From Cyanidioschyzon merolae (taxonomy: Eukaryota): a DNA stretch of 64,000 bases. The notes beneath the pieces are model-generated. The model saw only the letters and a list, made by a program, of their open reading frames with translations, made no database searches and had not been told where the DNA came from. The stretch is from assembly GCA_000091205.1 (NCBI GenBank), contig AP006485.2. The stretch is one strand, 5' to 3'. Made by a program: the position numbers and the translations under genes. Shown piece by piece: positions 1-58,789 of the stretch. Position 1 is the first letter of the stretch, and each line of letters opens with the position of its first letter.

Positions 1-964
1 CAACCACTTTCCCGACAGGAACATCCATTAGATCACGTATCTTGACAAAGTCGAACGAGACGCGTTGAATCATATTATCATCCGGAAGCTGGGTGATGAC
101 CGAGTTCTGGTCCAAGATCATCTCAAAAGAATGACCCGTATGATTGAACTGAGCGTTTGCTGGTTTCAAGCTCGCACCTGCAATACTGTAAATCCCGTTC
201 AGCTCAATGCGTTGATGTGCCTCGAGGGCCTTTTCACGAAACGCCGTAACGCGCATATTCCCTGTTTCGTCGGCTATTTCGAAAGAAAAGAGTTTCCCTT
301 CGCCTTTGGCGTTCGAATACGTACGCAGTTCTCCCTTCTGCACCACGCGACCCCTTATGATCACGTTGTTCTGATACGGGTTGGCGGCGCTGATCTTTGT
401 GTAGCCACCCGGCGGTGCTAGAGTTTCCACTGATGATCCCAGACCTTGGTCAAACCGCACTACGGGGCCAGCAGCTGCAGATTTAACAGGTGGCGGTACG
501 GACACTGGAGGCGCGCCGGGTGTTACCCGCGGCGGTGGAGGCTTATGTTCGACACCGGCTGAGACCGCCTGCCTTTTTCTTGCCGTTTCCGTTGAATCAT
601 CATCAAAGCTATGCGAGCTTAATGCGGTATCCGTGCTCGCCCTGGGATCAAACGCTTTCGGGTTGCCAACAGTGGGCGCATTTCGCTCCAAAATCTCCAG
701 GTTGATGATAATGGCAACAACTCGGTCTTGAACTTTGTTCGGTTGATAGTCGACCAACCGAACGATTGATCCTTTATCGAGATCCCCACTCAAAACGAAC
801 GAGTTCAGTTGGGCCATGAGCACGCAGTGTAGCAAGTGCTCGCCATCCGATAGAACCACTCGATAACGATCACCGCTGGTTGTAGCCTGTGCCTGCTGCG
901 CTACACTGGGCTGTAGCTTCCTTACCTCCTGTACCTGAAGCACAGGCCGCGACACGGTGTTCAT
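1..964 (-). CDS. RPA1: Replication protein A 70 kDa subunit (RPA1), N-terminal part; CDS runs off the window start
   Basis: Manual translation of the - strand from the ATG (complement of 962-964) gives MNTVSRPVLQVQEV...RYRVVLSDGEHLLHCVLMAQLNSF..., an RPA70 N-terminal OB fold. After a linker comes ...YQNNVIIRGRVVQKGELRTYSNAKGEGKLFSFEIADETGNMRVTAF..., the DBD-A signature. The frame stays open to coordinate 1. The ORF track does not list it because it is open-ended. Confidence 0.75.
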   Translation of the reverse strand, partial: MNTVSRPVLQVQEVRKLQPSVAQQAQATTSGDRYRVVLSDGEHLLHCVLMAQLNSFVLSGDLDKGSIVRLVDYQPNKVQDRVVAIIINLEILERNAPTVGNPKAFDPRASTDTALSSHSFDDDSTETARKRQAVSAGVEHKPPPPRVTPGAPPVSVPPPVKSAAAGPVVRFDQGLGSSVETLAPPGGYTKISAANPYQNNVIIRGRVVQKGELRTYSNAKGEGKLFSFEIADETGNMRVTAFREKALEAHQRIELNGIYSIAGASLKPANAQFNHTGHSFEMILDQNSVITQLPDDNMIQRVSFDFVKIRDLMDVPVGKVV

Positions 965-1574
965 GCCATAAATGCTTTTCACTGCACCACGACTGAGTGC
1001 TGTGCTCGCCATCCTTGCGCAGCTGTGTTGTGCGTTTCCAGAAGACACCCACCACTCAGTAAAAGGCCACACGAACGTTAAGATGCGTTGGCGCCATTTC
1101 GCAGCGCTGCGCCACAGGGATGGACAGTTTATGGAATTATTGTCCAGTCTTCCGCGGGGCGTTCCCGCTCTTTGAGCAGCACCACGCTCGAGACGGACGC
1201 GCCATGTACTGCACGCACTGCGTGTGCTGTCTCCATGCTGTGCTCTGCGCCGATCATTGCCCGAAAAGTAGCTGCAAACGTCGCAGTAGGTACAAACTAA
1301 TCCACCTCGTGTCTTGTTCTTCCGTCTCTTCGAAATAACCGAATGTATATCAAATTCATGGATGCTCGTTGCAAGCTCCCGGTCGATTGAGCTTTTTTGC
1401 ACAGACGCCAGTAACATTTATTTCCCAAGTTGCTAATCGTTTCGCTTCCTCCGCAGTTCTAATGGCACTCCATATAGCACATCAGAGCTCAGATAGTACT
1501 CCTCATATTCTCCCAGGTTGCAGAGAAGCGCTGAGGAATCTTTTCTCATGGGGCTTCCAGTAACTACACCGGTA

Positions 1575-2135
1575 TCAGATCCAAACTGAACACTGAACTG
1601 TTCACTCACATCCTCTCTACCAGGTTTTCCGAGTATTTTACGTGGACAGCCCCGCCGTGCAACGAGCACCAACAACAGCTTACACATTCATGCACAGCTC
1701 AAGGATTCCCGATCGCCTCTTCAACGATAATTACCCGACGTCATCGCTCGGCGGCATCCTCTCAAGCTTATGCCGAAATTCCACTGATCTTGTCACGCCA
1801 AAGAATAACCCATTCCGTTCTAGAGACAAACCCTCATCCGCTCTTCGCTGCCGTCCACCATACACCGTTCCACTCCAGAATGATGCGCCTCACGGGGTCC
1901 GCGCCCTCGAGCGCAACCCGAACCGTTTAAAGGTCGACGCTAAGGCAGCCATGAGCACCCTTCGACTGCTGCCAGGGTGCCGGAGGGACGCAAGAGCCCA
2001 GCTCATAGAAAGCCGGATTTGGGGGCAGGAACGAGGATTATGAACAGAAGCTGAAAGAGACCGGAAATGCTGGTTAGGATGGTAACGGGAAGCGATCCCA
2101 GCTGTAGAATGTGTGCCCAAGATAGGTGAGTGGAC
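1575..2135 (+). repeat. R1 interspersed repeat, copy 1, variant A. It lies about 140 bp upstream of the Aos1 gene.
   Basis: Near-identical to segments at 5007-5567, 8044-8603 and 11375-11933. It begins at a TGAACtGTTCA palindrome and ends in ...CCCAAGATAG|GTGAGTGGAC. Confidence 0.85.
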
Positions 2136-2275
2136 GTGTTCCATTTTAGTTTGATCTTGGTCTGAAGCTCAGCCAGAGCTTTGTATCGTCTGCGCCGAGT
2201 CTCCGATTCTGATTCGGAATCTGTGTTGGCTAAAGCCTCACCGTTCAAAACTGAAATCTAGCTAGTCTTGCGTCT

Positions 2276-3463
2276 ATGCGCAAGCGTGTTCGGGAGACAT
2301 CCCCCAAGGATGCTCCTAAAGAAGACCCAGAAAGTGCACTCACACGGCACGAAGCAGAGGTTTACGATCGACAGCTTAGGCTCTGGGGACACGGCGCTCA
2401 ATGGCGACTCTCACAGAGCTGTGCCTTGATGGTTGTTCTTTCGAGGGGCACATCCGATCTTCTTTGGTTCGAACTCGCTAAAAACCTTGTGCTTGCCGGT
2501 ATTGGACACCTGACTGTCAGCGCTTGGCTTTCGAACCCTGGAAAGTACGAAGGGACCACCGAGAGCGACTCTTGTGCTGTGTGCGGAGAAGGATTGGCAC
2601 CTATTTCAGAGACGCAGGCTTTTAGAGATATCAAGGAAATGAACCCTTTTGTTACAGTGGAGCCTGGACCAGATGCGGGGTCGCTTCTGAAGAGCGTGGA
2701 AAACCTGGTTAACTTGAACGCGAACTGCGTCTGCATCGTTTCACCCGATTTTGAAGAACCGAACCCGCCTTCATCGAATACATCGGATGACATGACCCCA
2801 TGCACACGCCTTGCGGAATTCTGTGCTGAACTGAACATTCCCTGCTTCATTGCTGCGAGCATTGGATACTGTTGCGGTTTCTTCGTCAGCGAACCGGAAG
2901 AAAACGAACACTCGTGTATCCAAGTGGCAGAGGCCTCAAACAAGAGAACGTCTCCGGGAGGCATGCGTTTTCGTAGAGCCGAACAGCATGCAAAACCTGC
3001 GGCCGTACAGGATCCTTCTCAGAATCATCCGCGATGGAAGTCGACCTATGGGAATATTCTGGCCAAATTACGCGACGTATCGCAGGACGACGCTTCTTTG
3101 AATATCGCGAATGAAGACGCATGGCGTCCGTTTCTCAGGTGGATGACGTTCCGGCGGATGCGGATGCCTCATCCCCTCTATAAGGTAATCGGCGCGACAG
3201 CGAGGAGCGCTCTTTTCGCCGAGAATGATGACTCGATCCCAACAAGTGGAAACGTCGTCGATGCGTTGGGCTGGAACTTTCCGCCACTAGCCAAAGTTAT
3301 CGGTGGAATCTGGTCTCTGGAAGTCATCAAAATGCTTGCTGGTATAGATCATACTCAGTATTTCGGGAATTTCTTTTTCTTCGACGGTATGACCGCATGC
3401 GGTGCATTCACTAAGCTCGTTACGAGCGATATTTCGATCGAACCAAGTCGGGCAGATCCATAA
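2276..3463 (+). CDS. SUMO-activating enzyme subunit 1 (Aos1/SAE1-like E1 regulatory subunit)
   Basis: YDRQLRLWGHGAQWRL...LAKNLVLAGIGHLTV matches the ThiF/E1 N-terminal motif of Aos1. The C-terminal FFFDG and the size of 395 aa also fit. The ATG sits at 2276. Confidence 0.65.
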   Translation: MRKRVRETSPKDAPKEDPESALTRHEAEVYDRQLRLWGHGAQWRLSQSCALMVVLSRGTSDLLWFELAKNLVLAGIGHLTVSAWLSNPGKYEGTTESDSCAVCGEGLAPISETQAFRDIKEMNPFVTVEPGPDAGSLLKSVENLVNLNANCVCIVSPDFEEPNPPSSNTSDDMTPCTRLAEFCAELNIPCFIAASIGYCCGFFVSEPEENEHSCIQVAEASNKRTSPGGMRFRRAEQHAKPAAVQDPSQNHPRWKSTYGNILAKLRDVSQDDASLNIANEDAWRPFLRWMTFRRMRMPHPLYKVIGATARSALFAENDDSIPTSGNVVDALGWNFPPLAKVIGGIWSLEVIKMLAGIDHTQYFGNFFFFDGMTACGAFTKLVTSDISIEPSRADP

Positions 3464-5006
3464 CTCTCCAGCCATGCACGCTCAGTCTGAGGAGAAGACT
3501 GGGATAGCGAATGTTAAAAGCAGTATAATGGTATTCTTTTCGAATCAAGCTCCAACAGGGGCGTCTCATTATGTGATGTTGTCTATTCGTTTCCCGATCG
3601 ATATGCGCCGCGCACAAAACCCACGAGGTTGCTCAGAGCATATGTACCTTTGTCTACATGCCATTCGCAGCTTCCTGATGTTCCTAACAGTTCGCATAAG
3701 GCTAACGGCCGCTCTAACTGCACAGCGGATGAATGCATACGAAGCAGCGGACCGCACTGGGCCGTCTCACGTGTAGAGCAGCGCGAAACTAAGATGCAAA
3801 ATTGGTGTCCAATTCCAGGAACCGGCCTTGAAAACCTGTCCGCTCTGATGTAGGTCGCAAAACGTAACTGAGAGCCCAGCAACCCGTCATATGTCGCCCA
3901 GTTCATGCTGAATAATATTGATTGCCCCTGCGGGTGCAGATGTGTGCATGGTTTGGACAGAGCTTCTATCAGAAACAAATCGTATTGTTTAATCAGGTTG
4001 AACGTCCTTCTTCGTCGCTGACTGTGCAAGCGCATTGTGTGAAAACGAACCAAAAGCATAAAATCTCTCCAAAACCGGAATGTGAATTAAATATTTGTTT
4101 CTGCACAGCACTGTCATGGAGCACTGAGCTTGCTAAGAAATTTTGTGAGAAGTATGGTGCACAGGTTACTTTTTTATTTCGGGACCCATGACGCGCGACG
4201 CTCCCATCCGAATGAATATTTTTAACTCGGGAAGATTGCGACCTCGATGCTTTCCAGCGAGATAACAGTAGACATAGACATTTAAACCAATATAAACGAC
4301 CCCGGGATGTCGCGGATCCGGTGCATTTGAAGATGCAGCGATGTGAATTTGCTTTCCAAGAAAAGTAAATCTAGTTCCACAGATGCGAATACTCTCGGTT
4401 TCATCAGGCTACGAGTATATCTTTTGGATGCGGAGCAAGTCTTGAATAATGCGTTCAGCAGACACAACACAAGTCGGCGCAGCGCCCTTCAGGAATCTTC
4501 ATGGCATGGACCTATTACGTGCTGTGGTAACCTCGCAGAAGCAGCCGGGAGTGGCCGCCACAAGCCCCGGAACTGGAGCTCTTATGGGCTCCTTTCGTTG
4601 CCTCCATGTAGCAAGTAGCATTATGACAACCGCTCTTGTTAAATCTTGCACAACAGAGCATCCATATAAGTAACAGTGAGAAGGAACCAGAGTCTCGAAG
4701 GCACACGGCAAAAGCTGGCCGATATCCAGCAAATTCTTGTGGCTTCTTTAACTGCATCTCGTTACTGAGTGCTAGGGAGCTCCGACATCCTGTTTACGCC
4801 TTCACAGAGACCGAGCAGAAAAAAGTCGTACACGTGCGCATCGAGTGCCGAATGCCCTTGGACCAGGATATTCCACTTGACTCTTTCGCAGTGTGGCTTT
4901 TGATGTAGTTTTTAGAAGGTCCGAGACAAGATGAAGCTATCGAAGCCGTTTGTGCGACTTTCGCGTATGCCAGCTCTGCAAACACGCTGTAACTGCAACA
5001 AACTTA

Positions 5007-5567
5007 TCAGATACAAGCTGAAAACTGAACTGTTCACTCACATCCTTTCTACCAGGTTTTCCGAGTATTTTTCGTGGACAGCCCCGCCGTGCAACGAGCA
5101 CCAACAACAGCTTACACATTCATGCACAGCTCAAGGATTCCCGATCGCCTCTTCAACGATAATTACCCGACGTCATCGCTCGGCGGCATCCTCTCAAGCT
5201 TATGCCGAAACTCCACTGATCTTGTCACGCCAAAGAATAACCCATTCCGTTCTAGAGACAAACCCTCATCCGCTCTTCGCTGCCGTCCACCATACACCGT
5301 TCCACTCCAGAATGATGCGCCTCACGGAGTCCGCGCCCTCGAGCGCAACCCGAACCGTTTAAAGGTCGACGCTAAGGCAGCCATGAGCACCCTTCGACTG
5401 CTGCCAGGGTGCCGGAGGGACGCAAGAGCCCAGCTCATAGAAAGCCGGATTTGGGGGCAGGAACGAGGATTATGAACAGAAGCTGAAAGAGACCGGAAAT
5501 GCTGGTGAGGATGGCAACGGGAAGCGATCCCAGCTGTGGAATGTATGCCCATGATAGGTGAGTGGAC
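5007..5567 (+). repeat. R1 interspersed repeat, copy 2, variant B. It abuts and overlaps the Hsp78 start.
   Basis: Identical to copy 4 at the variant positions (ttttcgtgg, aaactcc, cggagtcc, gtgaggatggcaacgg). It ends GTGAGTGGACATG, and that ATG is the Hsp78 start codon. Confidence 0.85.
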
Positions 5568-7973
5568 ATGTTCCATATTCAGTCTGACAGCCGCTCTGCC
5601 GCTTTCCGAGAAGCTGCGAGCGCGCGCATTCCGGGTGCGTCGAGATTCGCCGCGAGAATTCCGGCAGGCATCTCACCAGATCGCATTGCGCGAATCGAAA
5701 TTGGTTTTGGGATCAAAATTTGCGTTGGACATGTTCATTCTTCGCTACGAGAAATGCAAGGAAACCAGGACTCGCAACAAGAAGATCCCCTTAAGGTTTA
5801 CGGACGAGATCTGGTCGCCGAGGCTGAGGCAGGTCGACTGGATCCGGTGATTGGTCGCGATGCTGAGCTGCGGCGTGTGATTCAGATCCTGTCAAGGAGG
5901 ACCAAAAACAATCCGGTTCTAATCGGCGAGCCCGGTGTGGGCAAGACAGCAATTGTTGAAGCTCTGGCACAGCGTATCGTACGTGGTGACGTCCCGGAAG
6001 CGTTGTCAGGTACCCGAGTAGTCGCTTTGGATATGGCTGCTTTGATTGCTGGAGCAAAGTATCGGGGCGAGTTCGAGGAGCGTCTGAAGGGTATAATTAA
6101 GGCTGTAAAGGAGTCCGCGGGAAAAATCATTCTATTCATCGACGAAATCCATACTGTTCTCGGTGCAGGCTCCACTAGTGGTGAAAGCATGGATGCAGCG
6201 AATATTCTGAAACCGGCACTCGCTCGCGGCGAGCTCAGATGTATCGGTGCAACTACTGTTGACGAGTATAAGAAGCACGTGGAGAAGGACGCAGCGTTTG
6301 AAAGGCGGTTTCAACAAGTCTACGTATCTGAACCCTCCGTTGAAGAGACGATATCAATTCTGCGGGGCCTTCGACCCGTATACGAGAGTTTCCACGGTGT
6401 TCGAGTAACTGACGCGAGCCTCATCGCAGCAGCACAACTGAGCGATCGGTATATTCGCGACCGCTTTCTACCAGACAAAGCAATCGATCTCCTAGATGAG
6501 GCATGCAGCGCTATCCGGGTACAGCTAGACTCGCAACCAGAAATTATCGATCGCCTCGAAAGGCGGAAGCTGCAGCTCGAGATTGAGGAAACAGCGCTGC
6601 AACGGGAGAAAGACAAAGCGAGCAAGCAACGTCTCGAAAGCGTTCGGGAAGAAATAGCGAAAATAGATGAAGAACTTCGACCCCTGAAGAAGAAGTTTGA
6701 GAAGGAGATGCAGAAGGTGAATGAAGTGCGACACATCAGGTCGAAAATTGAGGAGCTGAAACGAAAAGCGGAGCTTGCCGAGCGGCGTCGGGACCTTGCG
6801 CTCGCCTCTGACCTACGATTTGGTGCGATTCCGGAGTTGCAATCACGACTGAGTCAACTTACGCGAGAAATTGATGAAGAGCGATCCCAGCGAGCATTAC
6901 ATGCGAGTTCGCGACTTTCAGGCACAGAGGCAGAAAGTGCTGTTCTGGTTTCAGAAACAGTGGAGCCCGCGCACATTGCCGAAGTAGTCTCGCGCTGGAC
7001 CGGCATACCCGTGTCGAGACTAACGCAAGGAGAACGAGAACGCCTGCTGCATCTCCGAGAGCGCCTCATGTCGCGAATTGTTGGCCAGGCGCAAGCCATA
7101 TCTGCTATAGCGGATGCGATTCTTCGATCCCGTGCTGGATTTGGCCGTGAGCAACAGCCTATTGGCTCTTTTCTGTTCTTAGGACCCACTGGTGTTGGCA
7201 AGACTGAGACGGCCAAAGCGCTCGCCGTGGAGCTTTTTGACACGGAGAAGAACATTGTGCGCATCGATATGAGCGAATACATGGAGAAACATGCGGTCGC
7301 CCGGCTCATTGGATCACCGCCGGGCTATGTCGGCTACGAAGAGGGCGGCCAGCTCACGGAGGCGATTCGGAGACGTCCTTACTCCGTGGTGCTCCTAGAC
7401 GAGGTGGAAAAGGCGCACCCGGAAGTCTTGAATATACTTCTCCAAGTTCTAGATGATGGAAGGCTCACGGATGGGCACGGGAAGGTCGTCGACTTTAGCA
7501 ACTGCGTCATCATCATGACATCGAATATCGGCAGCAAGTATATCCTCGATCTCAACGGCAGCGCAAAAGATGCTGAACCGTTTGTAATGGAAGAGGTTCG
7601 CCGTACTTTCCGCCCAGAGTTCTTGAATCGGCTGGATGCGATTGTGTTGTATAACGCTCTCGGTGAGGTACAACTAGCTGCAATTGTCCGTTTGCAACTT
7701 GCGGACGTGGGCAAGCGCCTTGCGCGTGAGCAGATTATGCTGCAGTGCACCGATGCTGCTGTAATTCGCATCCTGAATGAGGCGAAGGCGAATCCTGCGT
7801 ACGGCGCTCGGCCTATTCGACGCTTCATCGAGCAAGAGCTCGTGACAGAGTTGAGCCGTATGCATATTTCTGGTGAATTGCTCAGCGGTGGCCGTGTCAT
7901 CGTGGATGTTGATCAGCGTGGGGACTGGATATTCCGGGTCGAAAATCCCAGCCTGATGGATGACGACGAATGA
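5562..7973 (+). CDS. Hsp78/ClpB-type AAA+ disaggregase, probably mitochondrial; the N-domain is absent and an R/S/A-rich presequence is present
   Basis: NBD1 begins [63 protein letters not shown]. The second Walker A is GPTGVGKT. A coiled-coil M-domain is present and the protein is 803 aa. The first ~70 aa (…[17 protein letters not shown]…) look like a mitochondrial presequence, as in Hsp78, which lacks the ClpB N-domain. Confidence 0.9.
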
Positions 7974-8043
7974 TCACGCCCTTCTGTTACCGCACTATGC
8001 AGCCGTTTGAAGCAATATTGGCATAATAATACCTAAACCCTCA

Positions 8044-8603
8044 TCAGATACAAGCTGAACACTGAACTGTTCACTCACATCCTCTCTACCAGGTTTTCCG
8101 AGTATTTTACGTGGACAGCCCCGCCGTGCAACGAGCACCAACAACAGCTTACACATTCACGCACAGCTCAAGGATTCCCGATCGCCTCTTCAACGATAAT
8201 TACCCGACGTCATCGCTCGGCGGCATCCTCTCAAGCTTATGCCGAAATTCCACTGATCTTGTCACGCCAAAGAATAACCCATTCCGTTCTAGAGACAAAC
8301 CCTCATCCGCTCTTCGCTGCCGTCCACCATACACCGTTCCACTCCAGAATGATGCGCCTCACGGGGTCCGCGCCCTCGAGCGCAACCCGAACCGTTTAAA
8401 GGTCGACGCTAAGGCAGCCATGAGCACCCTTCGACTGCTGCCAGGGTGCCGGAGGGACGCAAGAGCCCAGCTCATAGAAAGCCGGATTTGGGGGCAGGAA
8501 CGAGGATTATGAACAGAAGCTGAAAGAGACCGGAAATGCTGGTTAGGATGGTAACGGGAAGCGATCCCAGCTGTAGAATGTGTGCCCAAGATAGGTGAGT
8601 GGA
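8044..8603 (+). repeat. R1 interspersed repeat, copy 3, variant A. It lies about 265 bp upstream of the Smr gene.
   Basis: Matches copy 1 at the variant positions. It ends GTGAGTGGACATGATCTATTTTTCTTCTGACACAG. Confidence 0.85.
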
Positions 8604-8868
8604 CATGATCTATTTTTCTTCTGACACAGTTGCAGCTGCTGCGCGAAAACAGCGCGTAAACAGAGTGGCCTCGCTTTCAAAGAGCTACGTCAGACACTGT
8701 GATTTTAGGCGCTCGATATCTTAGCGCATAACTTAAGCTTCATAAACTTAGTGGGTAACTGCACACGAGCGCAGTAGCGTGCCCACGTAGCAGCCTGCTG
8801 CAGGCACGAATAGTTCACGAGAGGCAGCGTTTGCTTCGAGTGCTCGCACAAACGAGGCGTCAGGCCTC

Positions 8869-10282: not shown

Positions 10283-11374
10283 ACTATGAGCTGCGTGTGC
10301 AGGACTCGACAAGTAGGTCTACAACCAGAGCATTTGTTTGAATGTGCTGCGTCGCAGCCTTGCGACAGATGAGAAATTTCAGCTCTTCGTTGCAGGTTCC
10401 GCCGTGTCATGTCGTCTGTTGCATCTGCTATCCGATAAGCAGTGCATCTCATCATCACAGCTGGCCCAACCAGAATCGTTGAAGTTGCGCTACTCACTAG
10501 GAACGAAGTGCTCATACGAGTAGCCACGTCCCAGCTGACAAGCATTTATGGCACAGCCTTCGTGACTCATTCCTTTGTCCCCTACAAGTGCTTGAACATT
10601 ATCGCCTTAAGATGAAAAAAACACAAACGCGCCTGTGAAATACTGGTACCCTTCCTGAACCTGTGAGTTGGACACATATCGAGAGTTAGTCCACTGACGG
10701 TTGGGCACTCTGCCTCTGATACATAGTGGTGAATTGAACGATTCACCGCTCCGCGCCTTGGAACGCAGGAATAGCGCAGTAGCTATCCCTTTCCATCTTA
10801 TTTTTAGGTGCATGGGCGCGTGTTTAGTGCTAGAGCAGCTCAACAGCGTCAATTCGATACGAACAAGGTAGTCGCACTTCAGGGGTCATAAAGGTCTGTA
10901 AGGTTCGCGGTACTGTCGCGACGGCACTCGAGGTACGCTTTGACATCGTAGAGCTGCAAAGCCTAATCGTTGGTTCGAAGGGATAGCTAAATCGGTGTAG
11001 TACTCCATCACGATACGCAGCTCCAAATATACTCGCTAGACGGCTACAGTTGCGTCGTTGTAGCGGCATTGCAGGCCAACACAGGCAGTTCAGCATCAAT
11101 ATACACCGTCTTTGCGAGCAAGGCGGACTTGTCTTACCTACCGGCACGGATGCTTCGAGGCTTTGTGGTAATGCTGGGCGTTTCGGCATCTGCGACGAAG
11201 CGCCGATATGCACCGGGGGGCGTCGCCGCTTAGTAGAACAAATAAAGATTCAAATCTTGCACTCCACAGAACAATGCGTTGCACTAGCAGGTGATAAACT
11301 AGCGGAGTTGCAGGCTGGAACCGAAAGCTTCCATGAAAAATATGCGAATCAGAACGAAACGCTATACCTGTACC

Positions 11375-11933
11375 GGATCCAAACTGAACACTGAACTGTT
11401 CACTCACATCCTCTCTACCAGGTTTTCCGAGTATTTTTCGTGGACAGCCCCGCCGTGCAACGAGCACCAACAACAGCTTACACATTCATGCACAGCTCAA
11501 GGATTCCCGATCGCCTCTTCAACGATAATTACCCGACGTCATCGCTCGGCGGCATCCTCTCAAGCTTATGCCGAAACTCCACTGATCTTGTCACGCCAAA
11601 GAATAACCCATTCCGTTCTAGAGACAAACCCTCATCCGCTCTTCGCTGCCGTCCACCATACACCGTTCCACTCCAGAATGATGCGCCTCACGGAGTCCGC
11701 GCCCTCGAGCGCAACCCGAACCGTTTAAAGGTCGACGCTAAGGCAGCCATGAGCACCCTTCGACTGCTGCCAGGGTGCCGGAGGGACGCAAGAGCCCAGC
11801 TCATAGAAAGCCGGATTTGGGGGCAGGAACGAGGATTATGAACAGAAGCTGAAAGAGACCGGAAATGCTGGTGAGGATGGCAACGGGAAGCGATCCCAGC
11901 TGTAGAATGTGTGCCCAAAATAGGTGAGTGGAC
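11375..11933 (+). repeat. R1 interspersed repeat, copy 4, variant B. It lies about 40 bp upstream of a 93-aa ORF at 11971-12252.
   Basis: Same variant as copy 2. It ends GTGAGTGGACATGATCCTTTTTCTTCTGGCATCAG. Confidence 0.85.
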
Positions 11934-13272
11934 ATGATCCTTTTTCTTCTGGCATCAGAGTAGCCGGCTGATGTATGCGAGTCACCTTCGACCGCAACAA
12001 TTCCGATTTATGCAATGCTGTAAATGGAGCATGCATGAGCGACTGCAGTGGGAGCACCTATCAGTCGAGCAAGCGTTCTTCTTTAGAGCTTTTATGCAGC
12101 ACACGGGGCCTCTTTTGCTGATGACTGCTTCTGTCGGAGATCTTTTGAGCTGGGCTGAACCTGCACAGCGGGAACGTTTAGAGGAATGTTGCGCAGACCA
12201 TTACCCGGATTTTGAGACTAGCGTAGCTGCTCCAAATAGATGCCATTGGTGAATATTGTGTTCCAACTCAATTTCGTTTCAATTCCGCTGCGGAGTATAA
12301 CAGGAAATCGAAATCACTATGCAATGTATGGATTAGAGCGCAGACGAATTTCCTAAAGGATGTATTCTTTATCGAGCAGTGCGATGAGGACTGCACTCCT
12401 TGTTCAGGTTATTCATGCCCCAGTACTCAGATGCCAGGGAACACTGAAAGAAACGAGTAGATGCGCTTCAGGCAGAAAACCGATTCTCTCGAAGACTGCT
12501 TGCAGGTCAATGGTAAGAAAAGACATGTTGATCACGTAATGGTAAGCAAAGCGCGACGACTGCAGACGCCACTGGCGTCTCTTTTTCTCAACAGCCTGTC
12601 CGCGTGGTCCTGCAAACACCGGGATGAAGTCCCAAAAAAGTCCCACTTCACTCACGGCCATCTTCCATCGAAATCGCAAAGACAGATTATCATGATATTC
12701 GCGATCCGCATGGAGCAGAGGAACGTCGATTTGTTTTCTCAGACGATGATAGTTCCTTCGGCAGAGGTAGTCCGAGCGTATACGTTGTTTCTCGGAGATG
12801 TGGCCTTTGTATGTAAGATCGAACTTGAAGTGAACTCCGACATCATCTGTTCTAGCTGCAGTGGATTCTTTTAGAGGCCCCAACTTCGCTCATAGAGAAG
12901 GCTTATACAACAGCGTCCACGTTGTCGAATTATTCAAAACTTGTACTTGACTTCTGGGGACGTCCATCTTTTAGACTACCTGGCAAGTGGCCATTACCCT
13001 TGCGTTCGAGCTATTGCGGATTCTGTCCGTTTTGAACTGCCTTCTTTCTCTCTTTACACTTCGTTTTACAACCCTATCGAAGGAGTATTTTGTATCCAAA
13101 AACGCAATGATCGCTCCGTTGCGCGAACCGGCCAGGCGTTCAGAATGGTGGCACACTAGAGCACATTTCGTCTTCTCCCGCAAGTTCTTCTTGCCCCGGG
13201 GAAGTCCTCACCTGAACATATGAAGAAGTTCGTTCATTTTCAAATGTAATCTGGATAAGGGAAAGTAAGGGT

Positions 13273-15348
13273 ATGGAAGGTGAGGATCCTGGAAGGCTGA
13301 CGTCGACCGCTGCTAGAAAAAGACGAAAAACAGTTTTAAACCCGGAAGAACAAGACAATACGAAGAAGCAAATAGAGAGGTCAGACTTCAAAGGCTGCAC
13401 AAAAGGCGACATTACGACGAGACGGTGGTGGAAGCAAGTCTTATTGGACATATCAAGGGTCTCCACGAGCCAAATTTGCAAGAGGCCATCACGAACTGTT
13501 CTGAGTCGTGCTCCAGTAATATTTGCAACGCTTCTTCAGGTCTGATGCATTTGGTCAGGGAGATGTATCGCGACGTGACGCATGTGGAAGCGGTTGAGAT
13601 TCCGGACGAGTTCTTCGACAAGACCTTTATTCGTCACCTAATATTTGGCACAGGAGGAACCTCGACGTGAGACAATCGCTTGCTCGCCTTCTACGAATAT
13701 CACGCCGAATGCCGCTCCGACGGTACTCGATACAGGGGTTACCGGGATATTTACAGCCATGGAGCGATGGATTACCTCACGAACCTCAAGAACCATTTGA
13801 CAATGAACCTCGAAAGCTTCATGATTCGCTCCACCTTTGCATTCTACCGGGACCTGTCTCGCAAAGGAATATGGGCCATCATCGGTGTCATCACGAACGA
13901 CCCCATCATGAGGATGAGATCGAATTCCTAGACAAGAAGACGCCATTCTGGAGAACTAATGAAGGTTCTGTAATCCGTGTGGCTCTCGACGACCACCGTG
14001 CGGTACTTGGACTGGCGAATCCAGTAGAAAAGGCATCAGATATGCTAAAAGATGAAAAAATATTACCCCCTCATCCTGCACTCTTTCGTGATCCTGAACT
14101 GAGAGCTCGAACGCAAGGCCGGAATGGAGCACGGCCTGAAAGCAGATAGAGACGAAGAAGCGGAAGGGTTTTCTGCACGAGAAGCTTTAACTTCGTCCCA
14201 TTTTTCACAATCAAGTCATACTTTGTGACAATCGACTTGTGAGTCCTTTATGGCACAATGGAATCTGTCCGAAGTTCGATGTAAGCAGGGAGGAATTTAT
14301 AGGCGAGAACAGGGAGCCTTATTGGAAGAATATCTTCGATTTCAAATGTCTCGAAACGAGCAGGAAAACTTATTTGCCGGGACAATCGAACACGATGGAG
14401 TATGCAAACGTGTTCACTGTAGTAGCTTGAAGGTGGATCGTCGTATTTTGTCTTCGTTGTCGCCCATGAAGAGCCATGTAGGAAACAAGGAGGCGGGCTC
14501 TACTACGCAGGAAGTGCAGAAGAACGACTTCATTGTAAGCGTGGACCCAGGGAACACGAATATCGTTACCATCGCGGCATCCAAGTGCCGAAAAGATGGC
14601 GTCGATGGCAACTTATGCCAGAAAGACATGCGTCTTTTAAAGTTCTCGAGAGCGAGAAAACACGGAGAATCGGGAATAATGAATGCAAGGAAGAAAAGTG
14701 AGACGTGGGACACAGGAATGAAAGAGCATCTGGAAGCGATCATCCAGGTGACGAGTCGTGGAGCGGACTTTGAAGTTTTGCGAGAATTCATAAAATTTCA
14801 GAATGCTCATGACGAGGAGCTGTGGAAAGAGGATACAAAGCCGCTATGGGCTCGTCAGCGACTGAATCTGCTCGGAGGGAGGCAGCGTGCATTCGCCAAC
14901 TTTTTTCAATGAGTTGAGCGCCCTCAAGGAGGACAAGAGTCAAAGCTTGGTGATAGCATACGGAGCAGGGCACTGGGTGACCCAAAAGGGGAGCATACCA
15001 GCTCCATCGAAAAGAGCGCACAAGGAGTGCGCACTCCCTTTCGAAGTGATACCGGTGTATAAATTCCGAACCACATACCTGCATCATGAGGTGGGATGCA
15101 CAATTCAGAGGGGCGAAATAGAGAAAAGCAAGCGGAGCGCTGATAGAGCAGGAAATAGCACAAGGGGCACGAGTTCGAGAACCTCTTCCATTAGTCAGGT
15201 CAAGCAGCGGCAGGAAACGAATGGAATTCGTGAATTGAGACTTGAAACTACCTATAATATCAGGAGATGTGCGGTGCTTGAAGGGAGATCTCCGGAGCTG
15301 ACGCGAACGAACTTTGTGGAGCAGCCTCCGGGGCTCAATTTGTATTAG
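13273..15348 (+). mobile_element. Fanzor/TnpB-like RuvC nuclease locus. Several adjacent ORFs in different frames suggest a pseudogene, or unannotated introns.
   Basis: ORF 13273-13545 carries a basic NLS-like RKRRK. ORF 14250-14912 has FIVSVDPGNTNIVTIAA, a RuvC-I of the Fanzor IDPG type. ORF 14887-15348 has LVIAYGAGHW (RuvC-II position) followed by EVIPVYKFRTTYLHHEVGC, which corresponds to the EFRTS…C zinc-finger segment. No clean RDxNAAxNI follows in that frame. Confidence 0.5.
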
Positions 15349-15570
15349 GAGAAGCTGAAGCCGGCAGCACGGCTGCGGACGAAACAGGTAGGGAGGTGCC
15401 TGCAGCTAGATACTAATTTCGCTTCCATGGTTGCGAAACTTTTTCGTTTCGAGAGGAGTTGACTCGCTGCGGTTTTTTCGCCAAAATCGTGGCTGCGAAG
15501 TCTCCGGAGAGCAGGCATTTTCAATAGTAAATTTAACAGCTTCCAAAGGTCCGACAGTTCCTTTCGCGGA

Positions 15571-18027
15571 ATGGAGTCGGACGACGAAGTGATAACTTGC
15601 GATGGACGGAGTGCGCTTCCTTCCTTAGCAGCGTACTCAGACGTTTCGGAGCATGTTGAACCGCTCATCAGATCGAAAGCTCTCCGTTTATACGAAGACC
15701 TGTTTTTGGCCTGCTCGGAGTGTCCGGATAGGTTTCCTTTCAACATCGCGATGGGCCTTCACGACTTGTATGTTTCGATTTTTCGGGCTCTAGCGGAAAC
15801 AGCCTCGGATCCAGGAGACTCTAGCGAACTCGGGAAATTACTTGCAGACCTGAGGTCTCAGCGTAATCTCTGGCTCTTATTGCACATCATGGACAACGCT
15901 GATTGTGAAGCTCGTAGAACAGTTTCTCAAAAACGTATGTCGCCCATGTGCACTCGGAGAGAGCGTCCTGCTGCTATCGACCAGCTCTCACGACAGATCT
16001 CGATTGATGGAAGCGGGTTCCTACCAAATCCGCTCGAAACGCTCCCCATGGTCACTTCCTGTCGTCGAGTGCTGGAGTGGCTGGAGCGTACGTCTGCACT
16101 GGACCTCGACTCCTCCATGGGGGCACACTATGCTGCACTGGCTGAGCTGGGAAGTCTGTGGGATCCGTCATATCGCTGGGGGCTCTCCCTGACCAACGGC
16201 ACTGCATTTGACATGGACGCTCCGTTTCGTGGTGATCTGCGGCTAGCTGATGAGGATTTAGAGGCCGATGAGCGAATCTGCCGGGCTTGCTTTGGCCTTC
16301 TCCGCTGCGGTCGACTAGAGCATGCTCTAGAGCTGCTGCGACGCACTGGTCAGCACTGGAGGGCGGCGCTTTTCCAGGGAGGCCATTCTGCAGCCCTGGA
16401 AGCGGCCGACGGATCAGATGGTTCGCACTGGATTCTTTGGCGAAAGATGGCTCGTGACATCTCGAAGCTGGATGTGCAGAACTTTTGGGAGCGTTCAATA
16501 CTCTGCCTGCTCTCGGGAGGAGCGGTGCCAGTATCTCTGCTTGACGCACCATCCATGGAGGATCGGTTATGGGTTCGACTTTGGAGCCTTTTAGATGAAT
16601 TCATCGGAAGTCGATTGGCCATCCTGTTGCGAGCCAGTACCAACCAAAGCACGTACTTGGAATCTCAGAAGCCGTCGAGCATTACATCATCCGAGGAGAC
16701 AATTTTTTCAACTGCTTCGGACATTCCAAACGAAAGTTTGTTTAAGGCTATCAAGGAAAGTGGGACTCGGGCAGACTCATCAAGGGCCGCGCAGCTTTTC
16801 GCCATTTTGCCACTAATAGTCGATCCGAGCACACGCTCGCAGGAAGAAATCCTTCGCACTTTACTGAAGAATGCCCGTGACACGTCAGAGTCACCGTCAG
16901 ATTTTCCGGATGATTCGAGCGATGAGCGGATTGTAAGCGACCTATCCCATTTTTCGCTCTGCATTGCCACTCATCTCCATTGGTATCTAACCGCTTCGAA
17001 ATCGGATGGTTGCTGCTCGGAGACGCACCTTTTAGGGGACTTACTTCTATGTGCTTTTATTCAACGGTTAAGAGAGTTTAGCGGGAAATGTGAATCATTT
17101 CTCGACTTACTGGCGCGTTATACTTTGGCCATTTCTGCAAAAGAGCTGCGAATTAGGGCAGTTATCCGTCTCTTATGGAACAGTCCCATCGCTGAAATCC
17201 GTGACATAATTTCTGCGGTTGATGAAGTTTCGCGTTCTAATGAAGAGGCCGAAATATTCGCAGATATTGTTCTTGAGTTTTGGAGCTTTGCTTGGACGCA
17301 TGTTCGGGAACAGCTGCGCTCTGGAGTGGGATCCGTCGATGAAAAGGACCTCCACAGGCTAGAGTATTGCCTCGATCTGCTCAAGGAACTTGGTGATAAC
17401 TTTGCTAGCGTCCACGCTTCCAGTTTAATGCAGGTTATAAGAGAATTTTACTCAAAAGATCAAATTTCAGCTACGAAATCGATGATACGGAGAGAGCGCG
17501 AGAGTGGCCATCCAAATATAAGGCTCCAAGAGGACGCAGAGTGGCAGTGCTGGTGCGCGCTTCTTGAAACAGAGGATCTCTACCTGCAGTGGACGGACTA
17601 TATGTTCGACCGAGGCCCCACTCGAAGACCCCGAAGACCGCAGAGTGACGACATCTCCGAGCTTGAATCGTACGAGATATCATTGCGTGAGTGGCTCAAG
17701 GGAGTTGATGATCTTGCTCTCCAAGCACTACACAGCTGCTTGAACTTGCTGCATGCAATTGCCTATCTTATACACGACCGGAATCTCGAATCCAGCTCGT
17801 CCGATCTAAGTTTTTGTGTCCGAATATGGTGCTCAAATCTTCTCTCCAACGTCTACGAAATCTCACAGAACCCAACGGCGTGTCGAGTCTTACCGCGTCG
17901 CGCAGACGTTTTTGTGGACTTGATGAGCTTCATTCCCCCCGAGACGCTTCGCTTATTGACGCAAAGATTAGGTCATGCTTGGACTGTCGTCAGGACGCGA
18001 AAGGAGCTGTCCATGTATGATCAATGA
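15571..18027 (+). CDS. Large alpha-helical protein of unknown function (818 aa). A nucleoporin-like scaffold is possible but unsupported.
   Basis: A single uninterrupted ORF with its ATG at 15571. It is helical and repeat-rich, and I recognised no catalytic motif. Confidence 0.4.
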   Translation: MESDDEVITCDGRSALPSLAAYSDVSEHVEPLIRSKALRLYEDLFLACSECPDRFPFNIAMGLHDLYVSIFRALAETASDPGDSSELGKLLADLRSQRNLWLLLHIMDNADCEARRTVSQKRMSPMCTRRERPAAIDQLSRQISIDGSGFLPNPLETLPMVTSCRRVLEWLERTSALDLDSSMGAHYAALAELGSLWDPSYRWGLSLTNGTAFDMDAPFRGDLRLADEDLEADERICRACFGLLRCGRLEHALELLRRTGQHWRAALFQGGHSAALEAADGSDGSHWILWRKMARDISKLDVQNFWERSILCLLSGGAVPVSLLDAPSMEDRLWVRLWSLLDEFIGSRLAILLRASTNQSTYLESQKPSSITSSEETIFSTASDIPNESLFKAIKESGTRADSSRAAQLFAILPLIVDPSTRSQEEILRTLLKNARDTSESPSDFPDDSSDERIVSDLSHFSLCIATHLHWYLTASKSDGCCSETHLLGDLLLCAFIQRLREFSGKCESFLDLLARYTLAISAKELRIRAVIRLLWNSPIAEIRDIISAVDEVSRSNEEAEIFADIVLEFWSFAWTHVREQLRSGVGSVDEKDLHRLEYCLDLLKELGDNFASVHASSLMQVIREFYSKDQISATKSMIRRERESGHPNIRLQEDAEWQCWCALLETEDLYLQWTDYMFDRGPTRRPRRPQSDDISELESYEISLREWLKGVDDLALQALHSCLNLLHAIAYLIHDRNLESSSSDLSFCVRIWCSNLLSNVYEISQNPTACRVLPRRADVFVDLMSFIPPETLRLLTQRLGHAWTVVRTRKELSMYDQ

Positions 18028-18081
18028 AACGAAAATGTTCTGACCATACAGTGCATAAATACATCCACTTCCAAACGCCTC

Positions 18082-19337
18082 CGAGCCTCGTTTGACGGCC
18101 CCCGGCTACCTGCTTGAGCTTTCCCTTGAGCAAATCGAGCGTGAGAGGCTGCCCTACAAAATTTGACCGCCCCAGCTCCTCGGGGCTCGTATTCTGCACC
18201 ACACGTCGTCTGATATGGATGGACGCAATGAAGTCTCGGCTCTCGAACTCCACACGTTTATTGCCTCTGGTGGAACTCGCAATTGCAAGGATAGGTAGAC
18301 CTCGTGCACTCTGTGCCACTGCGGCTTCGTCATGCTCTCATTGCGCGAACACATTTCCCCACCTATCTCCCCTTTTCTTACCCTTCTTCTTCGTCACTTG
18401 CTCTTCTTCGCTCGATTGCCGGCGAGAAGAGGATTTTTCGTCCATCCCCGACTACCGAAGATAACCGCATTCCGGGGCCCACGAGTTGCGTATCGATACC
18501 GTTCCCTTGGAATTTTCGTTTCTTCAACTGAAGACACTGCTCTATGCCGTTAGGTGAGGACCTTCCCGCACCGAGCAGCACATGCGGAAGAAAGACAAAA
18601 TGCGCCCCGATGTGTCACCGTGCGCTGAATGCTTCAGCGATTCGCCCGGTGGAACGGTCATTAGGTCTCACGATAGAAAACATTCCGCCGATGCAGTTGG
18701 AACACGGAGCGCACGGAGGAATGAAAAGCAGCTTTGCCCCGAGAGAATCAGCAAAAGCTCGACCGCAAGGGTAATAATGAAATGTCACGCTGTCCAAGAG
18801 AAGAATATCGCCAGACGCCAGGGGAAAAGTCTTTTGTGATTTGACGAAGTGGTTGGTGCTGCTGTATGAGCCTTCTCTACGAGCGAAAACCGAGGCATCC
18901 AAATGAATCCACTCTAGCGAGAAGAGATTGGTCCGCGCTCTCTTCGGGTTCGATCGTGGATACATGGGGCTCCCTGCCCCGCGAATACCCATGTACATTC
19001 CGACCGATTCTTCTGGAACAAGTCTCATTGGCTGGAAAAATGAACCGACGTCCCTAAGGATCATACCGATTGAGACGTTCTAGGAACACTGTAGATGCGA
19101 TTTTGGTGCAAGATGGCCGTGACTGACGTTGGAACTTTTCTGCGATTGTACCCATCGTTTTCAGGATCAGACGAATTTGCTGTTAAGAAACAGAGATGCC
19201 CCAGGTGGCTTCGATTGAGGGTTTTACTTTCAGCAAAAGATTATCAATGATCCGTTTTCTACCATTTACAGAAACCAGTCCTTGAGAATGATAGTTTTTG
19301 AGCGCAGCTCGTATACTTGTTTCGTTCAGTGGCCCTC
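18082..19337. repeat. R2 repeat, copy 1 (1.26 kb). It is near-identical to 34093-35353.
   Basis: The ORF translations on both strands are identical apart from a few substitutions (IRSHDRKH/IRFHDRKH, VRPNDRS/VKPNDRS). The flanking sequences differ. Confidence 0.85.
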
Positions 19338-33119: not shown

Positions 33120-34092
33120 AGCGGAGATTACAGTGGAATGAAAAGCAGGCCAACGTCAGAGTCAGCCCCGCAATACTTGACCGTCTTTGAGTGCTGGAAA
33201 GCGACTTTGCCGTTGGGCATGATAGAAGAATGTGCGACAGTGAAGCCACTCAGTAGCTCTACGATGGATGAGGCTTTGAACGATTCGGTCTTTTGGGCGA
33301 TTTGTGGTCGACTAGAGGATCGAATCGCAGCCAGGGCTGATGTTTTCGGAGTTCTCGTGCGTGCCTCCTGTGCGATTCGTATTGTCGACTCTTCGAATGC
33401 CCGTGTACAAGTCCACCATATCTCCCGAACAATGTTCATCAAGTGAGACGAACACAAGTCCGTCCAGCTATAAGCGTTCGCGTCCTATTGGGAAACCCGC
33501 AGTGTGTTGTCGAACGAACGATAGAGACCCATGGAAGCGTGCTCTTTTCTTTGTCCACCCAAGTCTCATCCCCTTCGGTTGTCTCAACAATACGGAAACT
33601 TCACATCCTGGGGATCCGTGGTTGGTACCCCCTGGAGAGCGTACGAAGTGGAATAGATTGACAAGGAGACAGCCCCGTACACGGAGCAGAATAAGTCCTT
33701 TTTCGCGTGCAGGACGCTCATGAAAAGGACGACAGGGAAGGTGGTTCATCCGCCTGCAGAACATAGAATGACAGACATGAACAAATAAGGTGTTTTGGCG
33801 AGCAATCTGCTATAGCGTACTATATTTCTGCGGCCTTTCTTCATCTTACAGAAAAAATTCTTCTCGTTCGATACCTGCGAAAGAAGCTAACCAAAAACAA
33901 AAAGTGTTTGCTCTTCCAAGTGTGCTGCAATTCACTGCTTTAACTGCGGCGCATATCGAGAATCGAGGTCCTATTTCATTGCATGGCATATGACTATATT
34001 TTACAGCACTGAATAGCGCTGTCGTAGATGATCATAAAGAAACGATAAACGTTTCAAGAGGATATAATGTATTCATATATCTATTCATAGGC

Positions 34093-35353
34093 GACTCCGA
34101 GCCTCGTTTGACGGCCCCCGGCTACCTGCTTGAGCTTTCCCTTGAGCAAATCGAGCGTGAGAGGCTGCCCTACAAAATTTGACCGCCCCAGCTCCTCGGG
34201 GCTCGTATTCTGCACCACACGTCGTCTGATATGGATGGACGCAATGAAGTCTCGGCTCTCGAACTCCACACGTTTATTGCCTCTGGTGGAACTCGCAATT
34301 GCAAGGATAGGTAGACCTCGTGCACTCTGTGCCACTGCGGCTTCGTCATGCTCTCATTGCGCGAACACATTTCCCCACCTATCTCCCCTTTTCTTACCCT
34401 TCTTCTTCGTCACTTGCTCTTCTTCGCTCGATTGCCGGCGAGAAGAGGATTTTTCGTCCATCCCCGACTACCGAAGATAACCGCATTCCGGGGCCCACGA
34501 GTTGCGTATCGATACCGTTCCCTTGGAATTTTCGTTTCTTCAACTGAAGACACTGGTCTATGCCGTTAGGTGAGGACCTTCCCGCACCGAGCAGCACATG
34601 CGGAAGAAAGACAAAATGCGCCCCGATGTGTCACCGTGCGCTGAATGCTTCAGCGATTCGCCCGGTGGAACGGTCATTAGGTTTCACGATAGAAAACATT
34701 CCGCCGATGCAGTTGGAACACGGAGCGCACGGAGGAATGAAAAGCAGCTTTGCCCCGAGAGAATCAGCAAAAGCTCGACCGCAAGGGTAATAATGAAATG
34801 TCACGCTGTCCAAGAGAAGAATATCGCCAGACGCCAGGGGAAAAGTCTTTTGTGATTTGACGAAGTGGTTGGTGCTGCTGTATGAGCCTTCTCTACGAGC
34901 GAAAACCGAGGCATCCAAATGAATCCACTCTAGCGAGAAGAGATTGGTCCGCGCTCTCTTCGGGTTCGATCGTGGATACATGGGGCTCCCTGCCCCGCGA
35001 ATACCCATGTACATTCCGACCGATTCTTCTGGAACAAGTCTCATTGGCTGGAAAAATGAACCGACGTCCCTAAGGATCATACCGATTGAGACGTTCTAGG
35101 AACACTGTAGATGCGATTTTGGTGCAAGATGGCCGTGACTGACGTTGGAACTTTTCTGCGATTGTACCCATCGTTTTCAGGATCAGACGAATTTGCTGTT
35201 AAGAAACAGAGATGCCCCAGGTGGCTTCGATTGAGGGTTTTACTTTCAGCAAAAGATGATCAATGATCCGTTTTCTACTATTTACAGAAACCAGTCCTTG
35301 AGAATAATAGTTTTTGAGCGCAGCTCGTATACTTGTTTCGTTCAGTGGCCCTC
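34093..35353. repeat. R2 repeat, copy 2 (1.26 kb). It is near-identical to 18082-19337.
   Basis: See copy 1. The identical ORF set lies at 34130-35080. Confidence 0.85.
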
Positions 35354-56956: not shown

Positions 56957-57639
56957 TTTTCGTTGTAAATCTTGATAATGCCGCGAATCGCCAAATAACT
57001 TTCACAGGAACCACCCTATGAACCACCCGAGCAGTGGAGAAGCTGACTTGCGAAAAAACGGGGTACGCGACGGATGTACAGCCGAGAGTCGTGGCTGCTT
57101 CGCAGGACGGCGAAAATCCGGACGTGGCTAAACGGGACAAAAATACCCTCAGCTGCGCTGCCTGTACGATAATGTATAAAAAGGACAAAACACCCACGGG
57201 TGCGCTGCCGATTTTGATGCTGAACATGGTAACCAATATCCTACGACCATGAAGTTTAAATTATTACCACATGCAGAGGTCTGCCAGCCTTTTCAACCGG
57301 ACCCCTGCCGCCGGTTTCAGCCTTACCTCGTATACTTCGATCCTGAGAGGTTCCCCACAAAGCTGGCTCGCGCCAGCTCCACGAGTGTCATATAAAGCAA
57401 CGCATATCGTCTGATATTGATGGCGGCGTCAAAGTACCGGCTCATGGACCCCATGCGTTTGTTGCGTCTGATGGGACTCGGCTCTACAAAGATTCCTTGA
57501 ATTCGTGCCGTCTTTGCCATCTGGTGCTCTGTCAGCTCTCCGTACTCATATATCACGGAAGCGCTCCGCTGCGTTTTGTCCGTCTGGACCTTCTGAAGTG
57601 TGCGCCCTAGGATATCCCTCGGATTTTTTAAAGTGAATG

Positions 57640-58250: not shown

Positions 58251-58789
58251 GTATCCGGGTATTTGCAGGACCACACAGACAAGGTGTTGAGCAACAGAGA
58301 CGCCCGTGATGGCTGCGATCCTCGCTTTTGCCTTCCGTGAGATGCTCAACGTGTCGTTTTCAACCATTGAATGCAAGCAGTTTTGAGGATTCGGTTTTTG
58401 GCTTGGATCGCATTTACTTTTCTGTGTTCCTCTCGCATCTGAGTACTGGGATATGACAGACCTGAAGGGGGAATGGAGTCCACCTTGCACTGTTCAGTGA
58501 AGAATATACATCCTGCAAGCAACTCATCTGTGCTCAATACGATAAATTGCATCCTGATTTCGATCTTCTGCTTTAAGCTACAAAAACAGCATTCGAATGC
58601 TTTCAGCGGTGGTCAAACAAAATTGAGTTGAAAGACTATAAAATGGAACAGTGAACATTTTATGCTGTTCCTGCTCTACAATCCTTTCCGAAATTTTTTC
58701 AGGTCGACGAACTCGACCTTCGAAGTGCGACAACAAAGAGTTACGAATCCACACCTAATTTAACGATTCTCGATTGTCTCTTCAGCGTG

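Follow-up and report, generated by a model that had tools for sequence, protein, structure and literature searches.

The window analysed here, a 64,000-nucleotide stretch of contig AP006485.2 of the Cyanidioschyzon merolae genome, contains four ORFs whose products match C. merolae 10D proteins at every residue (BAM79050.1, BAM79054.1, BAM79057.1 and BAM79070.1). Just upstream of one of these, a NUP107-like gene, lies a run of ORFs on the + strand which together read as the remains of a Fanzor1 gene, and directly before that run, in the same orientation, are the remains of a DDE_3 transposase gene (Table 1). The preliminary description of this DNA, made from the letters alone, had pointed to ORFs in different frames between 13273 and 15348 on the + strand, had suggested that laid end to end they resemble a Fanzor1-sized protein, and had called this the longest Fanzor-like locus of the window. 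All of this was borne out: the ORFs were found in three + frames, the longest encoding 220 aa (14250-14912), and the other Fanzor-like stretches in the window measure 1 kb or less. The motifs that had been quoted, namely RKRRK, FIVSVDPGNTNIVT, VIAYGAGHW and VIPVYKFRTTYLHHEVGC (starting at 15046), were all located in the sequence.

Table 1. Features of the Fanzor1 locus and its immediate neighbours (positions in the window).
Feature	Position	Strand	Remarks
Decayed DDE_3 (Tc1/mariner/IS630-type) transposase relic	12304-13244	+	Directly upstream, same orientation as the Fanzor relic
CMe-1A copy	13257-15497	+	Consensus positions 895-3169
Fanzor1 pseudogene	13273-15408	+	Corresponds to aa 1-728 of the 734-aa CMe-1
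Fanzor-frame ORFs	13273-13545, 13425-13670, 13667-14149, 14250-14912, 14887-15348	+	Three frames
Basic patch RKRRK	13315-13329	+	Putative, NLS-like; from sequence and alignment
RuvC-I DPG (VSVDPGNTN, in FIVSVDPGNTNIVT)	14544-14552	+	Predicted catalytic Asp codon GAC kept
VIAYGAGHW, canonical RuvC-II position	14950-14976	+	Gly-containing family-wide
Predicted alternative catalytic Glu, lost	15058-15063	+	Family VDEFRTS to VYKFRTT (Asp to Tyr, Glu to Lys)
RuvC-III remnant	15236-15246	+	Family NRDFNAAINI to N-TGA-GAC-TTG-AA, then 1-nt deletion
Degenerate 3' terminal non-coding part	15409-15497	+	Approximate end from MAFFT alignment of copies; 73 nt before the NUP107-like ATG
NUP107-like gene, Nup84_Nup100 ORF	15571-18027		ATG at 15571; identical to BAM79054.1

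The reference protein for the locus is CMe-1, the product of the CMe-1A transposon family. In a frameshift-aware protein-to-DNA alignment, aa 1-728 of the 734 of CMe-1 extend over 13273-15408, with 64.4% identity over 706 aligned residues; the protein-to-genome alignment that the preliminary description had proposed as a check thus chains the ORFs collinearly onto a Fanzor1 protein. With the published CMe-1 sequence as the query, tblastn gave E = 2.9e-178 at the locus, in segments of alternating frames, and a broad profile of the family (55 sequences, introduced below) matched the six-frame translation of the window at 13356-14927 (i-E 3.7e-85) and 14899-15333 (1e-20). A match of this strength is far beyond chance.

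CMe-1A is the one Fanzor1 family described for the C. merolae genome by Bao & Jurka (2013, Mobile DNA 4:12; PMC3627910). Its copies number about 150 and agree, at about 80% identity each, with a 3169-bp consensus that encodes a 734-aa protein; some have kept intact ORFs. The family has no TIRs, its TSD was left undetermined, and its 5' 635 bp correspond to TE-N2_CMe; Bao & Jurka classed CMe-1 as Fanzor1 and left CMe-1A, which has no transposase, unclassified (PMC3627910). Using the consensus and the CMe-1 protein sequence from the supplements of that paper, we aligned consensus positions 895-2794 to 13257-15143 (78.2% identity) and 2849-3009 to 15172-15328 (77.9%) by blastn, and a global alignment of the copy to the consensus gave 77% identity. 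Since the genome is the same, the DNA identity to the consensus is 78%, and CMe-1 matches as strongly as given above, the locus is one of the published CMe-1A copies. The likeness extends from the first Met to the C-terminus of the protein, probably to the 3' end, and to the lack of TIRs. The copy differs from the consensus in having no counterpart of the first 894 bp, to which the TE-N2_CMe-like 635 bp belong, and in carrying the DDE_3 relic there instead; consensus positions 1-894 have no blastn match anywhere in the window. Aligning the copy with 20 others that end in ...CGTTTTTCTTTTGAAAGGCG put its 3' terminus at about 15497. In this MAFFT alignment the window sequence CTGCGGTTTTTTCGCCAAAATCG at 15475-15497 is matched to the family terminus, but the 70 nt before it align poorly.

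Decay of the copy

We consider it almost certain that a DNA transposon carrying Fanzor1 inserted here long ago and has since died, leaving one of about 150 diverged CMe-1A copies of C. merolae 10D. Its reading frame is interrupted by ten frameshifts (at about 13372, 13902, 14063, 14148, 14185, 14267, 14368, 14901 in a T6 run, 15133 and 15236) and four in-frame stops (13668, 14100, 14240 and 15346). These lesions are not assembly errors, because an independent JGI metagenome contig (L001; 3300052694) has the same breaks: over the 6397 bp that it shares with 11810-18205 it is 99.56% identical, ORF calling on it gave the same fragments, and its only indel, in the T-run at 14904, leaves the frame broken. 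The lesions are thereby shown in a second strain too. When the five Fanzor-frame ORFs were looked up in the protein collection, four were absent, and the fifth (90 aa) appeared only as JGI/ENA metagenome calls without NCBI accession.

Comparison with the metagenome allele also bears on how the relic is evolving. Over the 2241 bp of the relic the two alleles differ 17 times, as against three times in the 2457 bp of the adjacent NUP107 CDS (Fisher p = 0.001); the relic evolves as unconstrained DNA does. Its differences are clustered, with 13 falling in 14409-14947 (539 bp) and none in 13273-14061 (about 790 bp), which is at odds with uniform neutral decay. A test for conversion of the SNPs to the consensus was mixed, the metagenome allele agreeing with the consensus at 9 of 15 sites and the 10D allele at 4 of 15.

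The invariance of the first 790 bp, together with the 73 nt that separate the element's 3' end from the NUP107-like start, is what speaks for a relic that is dead as a coding sequence and has been co-opted, either as promoter or other 5' regulatory DNA of NUP107 or as the source of a non-coding RNA. Against this stand the small SNP counts, whose clustering could be explained equally well by ectopic conversion between paralogous copies, and the properties of the 3' end itself. No part of the copy is harder to recognise than the 90 nt at its 3' terminus. RNAalifold applied to the last 195 nt of 15 copies detected no conserved structure (-7.5 kcal/mol, covariation term +0.63, a single compensatory pair), an Rfam scan of the whole window returned no match, and a conservation profile along the consensus shows no advantage of the 3' end (0.82-0.87) over the ORF (0.83-0.89). 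We therefore regard co-option of the relic as very unlikely.

The preliminary description had weighed a pseudogene against a real gene with short introns, and the first of these is the reading that our results uphold. For a live gene, with frame changes bridged by short introns or by programmed ribosomal frameshifts, one may cite the collinear arrangement of the ORFs of the three frames, the longest reaching 220 aa. The junctions leave no room for introns, however: homology to intact relatives runs unbroken and with no extra sequence across all ten frame changes, the homologous residues of the relatives abutting or overlapping there, and the four stops fall inside conserved blocks (for example GTGGTST*DNRLLAFYEY vs GTGETSRRNERVHALHEN, and TIDL*VLYG vs TIDSRVLHG). 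Short introns are excluded on these grounds, and the locus is a pseudogene, not an intron-containing gene. The intact relatives are, moreover, single uninterrupted ORFs; the predicted catalytic Glu and the RuvC-III motif of this copy are destroyed; and C. merolae reportedly has only a few dozen introns genome-wide. A live gene at this locus is thus hardly conceivable. With ten frameshifts, four stops and two catalytic positions destroyed, the dead CMe-1A insertion named above, a pseudogene where some published copies keep intact ORFs, is the reading that we carry forward.

Catalytic positions and Fanzor1 affiliation

The N-terminal patch RKRRK is NLS-like and may have served as a nuclear localisation signal. 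The corresponding position of the family consensus reads GKKRK, within an N-terminus of the form GKKRK...KKQKREARRQR, and many Fanzors carry an N-terminal NLS, a feature that experiments have validated (PMC10530073). The DPG of RuvC-I, described as a hallmark of Fanzors (PMC10711439), is likewise present, and in profile-to-PDB alignment it falls opposite DPGR of PpFz1 and DPNK of SpuFz1.

At the canonical RuvC-II position, the lack of an acidic residue in AYGAGH had been taken as a sign that the copy was catalytically altered even before its frame was broken. This does not stand. The family consensus at the position is VVAYGAGRW or V.AYG.AKF, and every relative reads AYGAG or AYGSA, so that a Gly is present throughout. 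In Fanzors the canonical RuvC-II Glu is replaced by Gly or Pro, and its role falls to an alternative Glu that precedes the zinc finger by six residues (PMC10530073, PMC10711439). The window sequence therefore has the normal Fanzor arrangement at this position.

The catalytic lesions proper to this copy are, as far as alignment can tell, those of the alternative Glu and of RuvC-III. At the former, the consensus DNA GATGAG has become TATAAA, turning DEF into YKF. At the latter, the family sequence EFVN-RD-FNAAINI is represented at 15224-15265 by EFVN-TGA-GAC-TTG-AA and then a 1-nt deletion: a TGA stop has replaced the Arg codon (15236-15238), and the Asp codon GAC is kept (15239-15241) outside any open frame. 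The earlier statement that no clean RuvC-III survives was thus essentially right, with the qualification that a recognisable remnant remains. The frame-1 reading that had been given for 15100-15235 is out of the ancestral frame; 15133-15235 makes sense in frame 2 only, which carries ...GALIEQEIAQGARVREPLPLVRSSSGRKRMEFVN.

The CCCC zinc finger, conserved in solved Fanzor1 and TnpB proteins (PMC10432273), is absent both here (YLHHEVGC...) and in CMe-1 (YTHHELGC...RGLLALVSTT), and the CxxC after DEFRT is missing in 38 of 40 relatives. Its absence is a deviation of the whole clade, which is a mildly new point.

Intact relatives were gathered with the repaired translation of the C-terminal half as the query. 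The search returned 130 relatives (best E-value 1e-132), almost exclusively metagenome proteins, some of them labelled with Pfam PF26935 (DUF8286); their motifs read ...VGADPGNTNIITIA..., ...VVAYGAGRW..., ...VDEFRTSYTHHELGC... and ...FVNRDFNAAINIRRCA..., and more than 430 related loci are present in metagenomes. An exhaustive profile search yielded 2327 clusters at 50% identity (E ≤ 1e-3), mostly of 600-700 aa, and 55 members of these clusters, CMe-1-type proteins included, make up the broad family profile. It matches the solved Fanzor1 proteins of Parasitella parasitica (PpFz1, 9CF0; E = 2.8e-22), Spizellomyces punctatus (SpuFz1, 8GKH; 1.5e-17) and Guillardia theta (GtFz1, 9CER; 6.5e-12), and DPG, DEFRTS and NRD line up in the alignments, matching three features that these enzymes have in common: DPG in RuvC-I, an alternative Glu within D-E-F/Y-R/K-T-S, and N-R-D in RuvC-III. 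By these alignments the CMe-1A family is Fanzor1, and DUF8286 corresponds to Fanzor1, the latter again a mildly new point. Unlike the three solved proteins, the CMe-1 clade has no CCCC zinc finger, with HH.../RGLLWC.ST in its place, and the window copy is inactive.

Narrower tools were less informative. A profile of 15 sequences found no match among PDB sequences, Pfam scans gave nothing relevant for the individual window ORFs and, for intact relatives, Cas12f1-like_TNB as the sole match (E = 0.11), and an AlphaFold2 model of one relative (P0118), built on a shallow alignment of 15 sequences, was unusable (mean pLDDT 35.5, pTM 0.23). A reading in which the ORFs are part of an unrelated host gene, and resemble Fanzors by coincidence at the level of motifs, could draw on the lack of Pfam matches for the individual ORFs and on DUF8286 being the only precomputed Pfam label of the relatives. 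It has practically no probability left, being refuted by the tblastn match to CMe-1 with its collinear full-length similarity and by the profile matches to three solved Fanzor1 structures and to the window. The metagenome loci, the roughly 150 genomic copies (PMC3627910) and the antisense ORFs, which show no family matches, speak against it as well.

As a Fanzor1 of the CMe-1A family, the intact ancestor of this copy would have been a 734-aa TnpB-like RuvC nuclease with a triad of Asp (DPG), alternative Glu (DEF) and Asp (RD). Judged by its homology to characterised Fanzor1 enzymes, such a nuclease would bind RNA transcribed from the 3' end of the element and cut matching DNA, and we infer an RNA-guided mechanism of this kind for the intact ancestor. 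Bacterial TnpB proteins (of IS200/IS605 and IS607; ISDra2 TnpB) share the ancestral RuvC RNA-guided fold and a guide RNA from the right end of the transposon, and differ in keeping the canonical RuvC-II Glu, in their size of about 400 aa, in being paired with TnpA and not with DDE_3, and in having no N-terminal basic extension. The copy in the window, with its frame broken fourteen times and two of three catalytic positions gone, is unable to act in this way. The family, its genome, its copy number and its divergence having been published in 2013, the locus is of an already known type and the copy inactive; the present analysis disposes of a false lead, the locus holding neither a Fanzor with introns nor a catalytically "altered" one; it also puts right how the RuvC-II position is read and connects Pfam DUF8286 with Fanzor1.

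The DDE_3 relic upstream

The relic at 12304-13244 has stops in all frames. Within it, LLDYLASGHYPC...FYNPIEGVF is what remains of the "DNa.fH...lPpYSP.lNPIE" block, and by blastn the relic shares 71.6% identity over 966 bp with another one at 58568-57626. When the intact DDE_3 ORF of a distant relative (L010) served as the query, tblastn matched aa 205-263 to 12932-13108 (E = 1.8e-6), and a sister relic at 18615-19064 on the - strand gave a Pfam DDE_3 match of E = 6e-4, below the gathering score. This transposase relic is absent from the preliminary description.

Five further places in the window show a DDE relic followed by a Fanzor relic of like orientation (19447-18076, 35460-34092, 58568-57288 and 33800-31295 on the - strand, and 59235-59893 on the + strand), several of them with internal deletions that have differing breakpoints. 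In other metagenomes, two distant relatives have kept intact pairs of DDE_3 and Fanzor1 genes, one encoding proteins of 348 and 642 aa (L007) and the other of 301 and 702 aa (L010; Pfam DDE_3 E = 1e-27). An imperfect inverted repeat of 28 nt, ending in TA, flanks the L010 pair. The recurrent pairing of DDE_3 with Fanzor1 is a mildly new point. From the recurrence of this gene order we infer that the two relics at our locus once belonged to one element, in which the adjoining decayed DDE_3 gene was probably the transposase that moved the two-gene unit.

The known system closest to such a unit is PUl-1, the mariner-type Fanzor1 element of Pythium ultimum, in which a Tc1/mariner-like DDE gene stands before a Fanzor1 gene of the same orientation (PMC3627910); the TIRs of about 28 nt with TA ends in L010 are comparable to its 24-nt TIR and TA TSD (PMC3627910). 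In contrast to PUl-1, both genes of the window are decayed, the proteins are only distantly related, and no TIR or TSD accompanies them. The preliminary description had proposed to define the host transposon by a search for TIRs and TSDs. Among the candidate ends of the main copy and of three deleted copies in the window this search gave 7-13-nt chance matches, with no TIR or TSD recoverable, and it leaves the left boundary of the element undefined.

The 5' region of the CMe-1A consensus was considered as a possible decayed DDE gene, with a negative outcome. Since this published 5' region differs from the DDE gene and is unrelated to it, most CMe-1A copies are not DDE-linked. A composite proposal can be made, which we hold, taken as a whole, to be evenly balanced between right and wrong: the DDE_3 and Fanzor1 relics would be the halves of one ancestral Tc1/mariner-type transposon, which would supply CMe-1A with its transposase and its superfamily; the TE-N2-headed CMe-1A would be a later chimeric, non-autonomous derivative; and the large Fanzor1 clade that lacks the zinc finger (more than 2,300 clusters at 50% identity, in part DUF8286) would habitually be carried by DDE_3 elements. 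The order of DDE_3 followed by Fanzor1 may thereby serve to classify a transposon family that had been left unclassified until now.

The zinc-finger position and the repeat before RuvC-I

[quoted passage not shown] The CxxC that would follow DEFRT, the family motif carrying the alternative catalytic Glu, was absent in 38 of 40 relatives (P0118, P0121-P0269 and CMe-1 among the clade examined), and the second half of the zinc-finger region is instead a conserved RGLLWC.ST. The clade comprises 2327 clusters at 50% identity (E ≤ 1e-3), and part of its proteins carry the Pfam label DUF8286. Immediately N-terminal of the RuvC-I Asp, the family has a tandemly repeated 22-aa unit, KHEDEKEADPATQEVxDNDFVV, the number of which differs between copies, relatives P0002, P0003, P0013 and P0016 among them, and goes up to about 7.

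Features of the main-locus pseudogene, related relics and repeats (window coordinates unless stated)
Feature	Position	Strand	Remarks
Zinc-finger position, main-locus copy	15064-15100	+	CCCC zinc finger missing, as across clade
22-aa repeat region	CMe-1A consensus 2117-2196
22-aa unit, main-locus copy	about 14470-14540		single
~584-bp repeat, four direct copies	1564-2147, 5005-5587, 8043-8616, 11362-11945	+	97-99% identity
~584-bp repeat, fifth copy	46557-46217 and 45655-45508	-	split in two
1262-bp segment pair	18076-19337 and 34092-35353	-	99.5% identical to each other
Second DDE_3-relic and Fanzor1-relic pair	33800-31295	-	more divergent; tblastn and Fanzor profile
Deleted DDE_3-Fanzor pair	57288-58568	-	72% identity to main-locus DDE relic
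Deleted DDE_3-Fanzor pair	59235-59893	+	ORF motifs

Allelic differences and the 3' flank

Differences between strain 10D and the metagenomic second allele, L001, within 13273-15199 are strongly clustered, with 13 falling in 14409-14947 and none in 13273-14061, and the derived state at the differing sites, judged against the family consensus, is mixed. Ectopic conversion among paralogous copies could account for this clustering, as could a chimeric metagenome assembly.

Right after the CMe-1A 3' terminus (...GAAAGGCG), many independent insertions have in common a T-rich, GTTTGTT-like flank (columns 334-345 of A5, the alignment of the 3' ends of related loci). This flank suggests a preference at the insertion site or one of a TAM-like kind.

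Repeats and further relic pairs

The four direct copies of the ~584-bp repeat are spaced 3.0-3.4 kb apart. The repeat is non-coding, containing no ORF, and Rfam returned no match to it; the idea that it is TE-N2_CMe, the 5' 635 bp of CMe-1A, was rejected on comparison with CMe-1A. Each 1262-bp segment consists of a DDE_3 relic followed by a Fanzor1 relic reduced to its C-terminal ~75 codons, and the pair represents either a recent duplication or an internally deleted element that moved recently.

In the more divergent pair, the DDE part matches aa 22-299 of an intact transposase (tblastn, E = 7e-12), and the Fanzor part, recovered by the Fanzor profile (i-E 9e-10 and 1e-6), is ~29% identical to CMe-1. 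Among the deleted pairs, the minus-strand DDE relic jumps straight to the Fanzor C-terminus, and the plus-strand ORFs read ...FIMDNIAFHK...LP..SP and ...CKCHVCITC...RDRDFNGAINI, the visible CxxC motifs of which indicate that the Fanzor type there retains CxxC.
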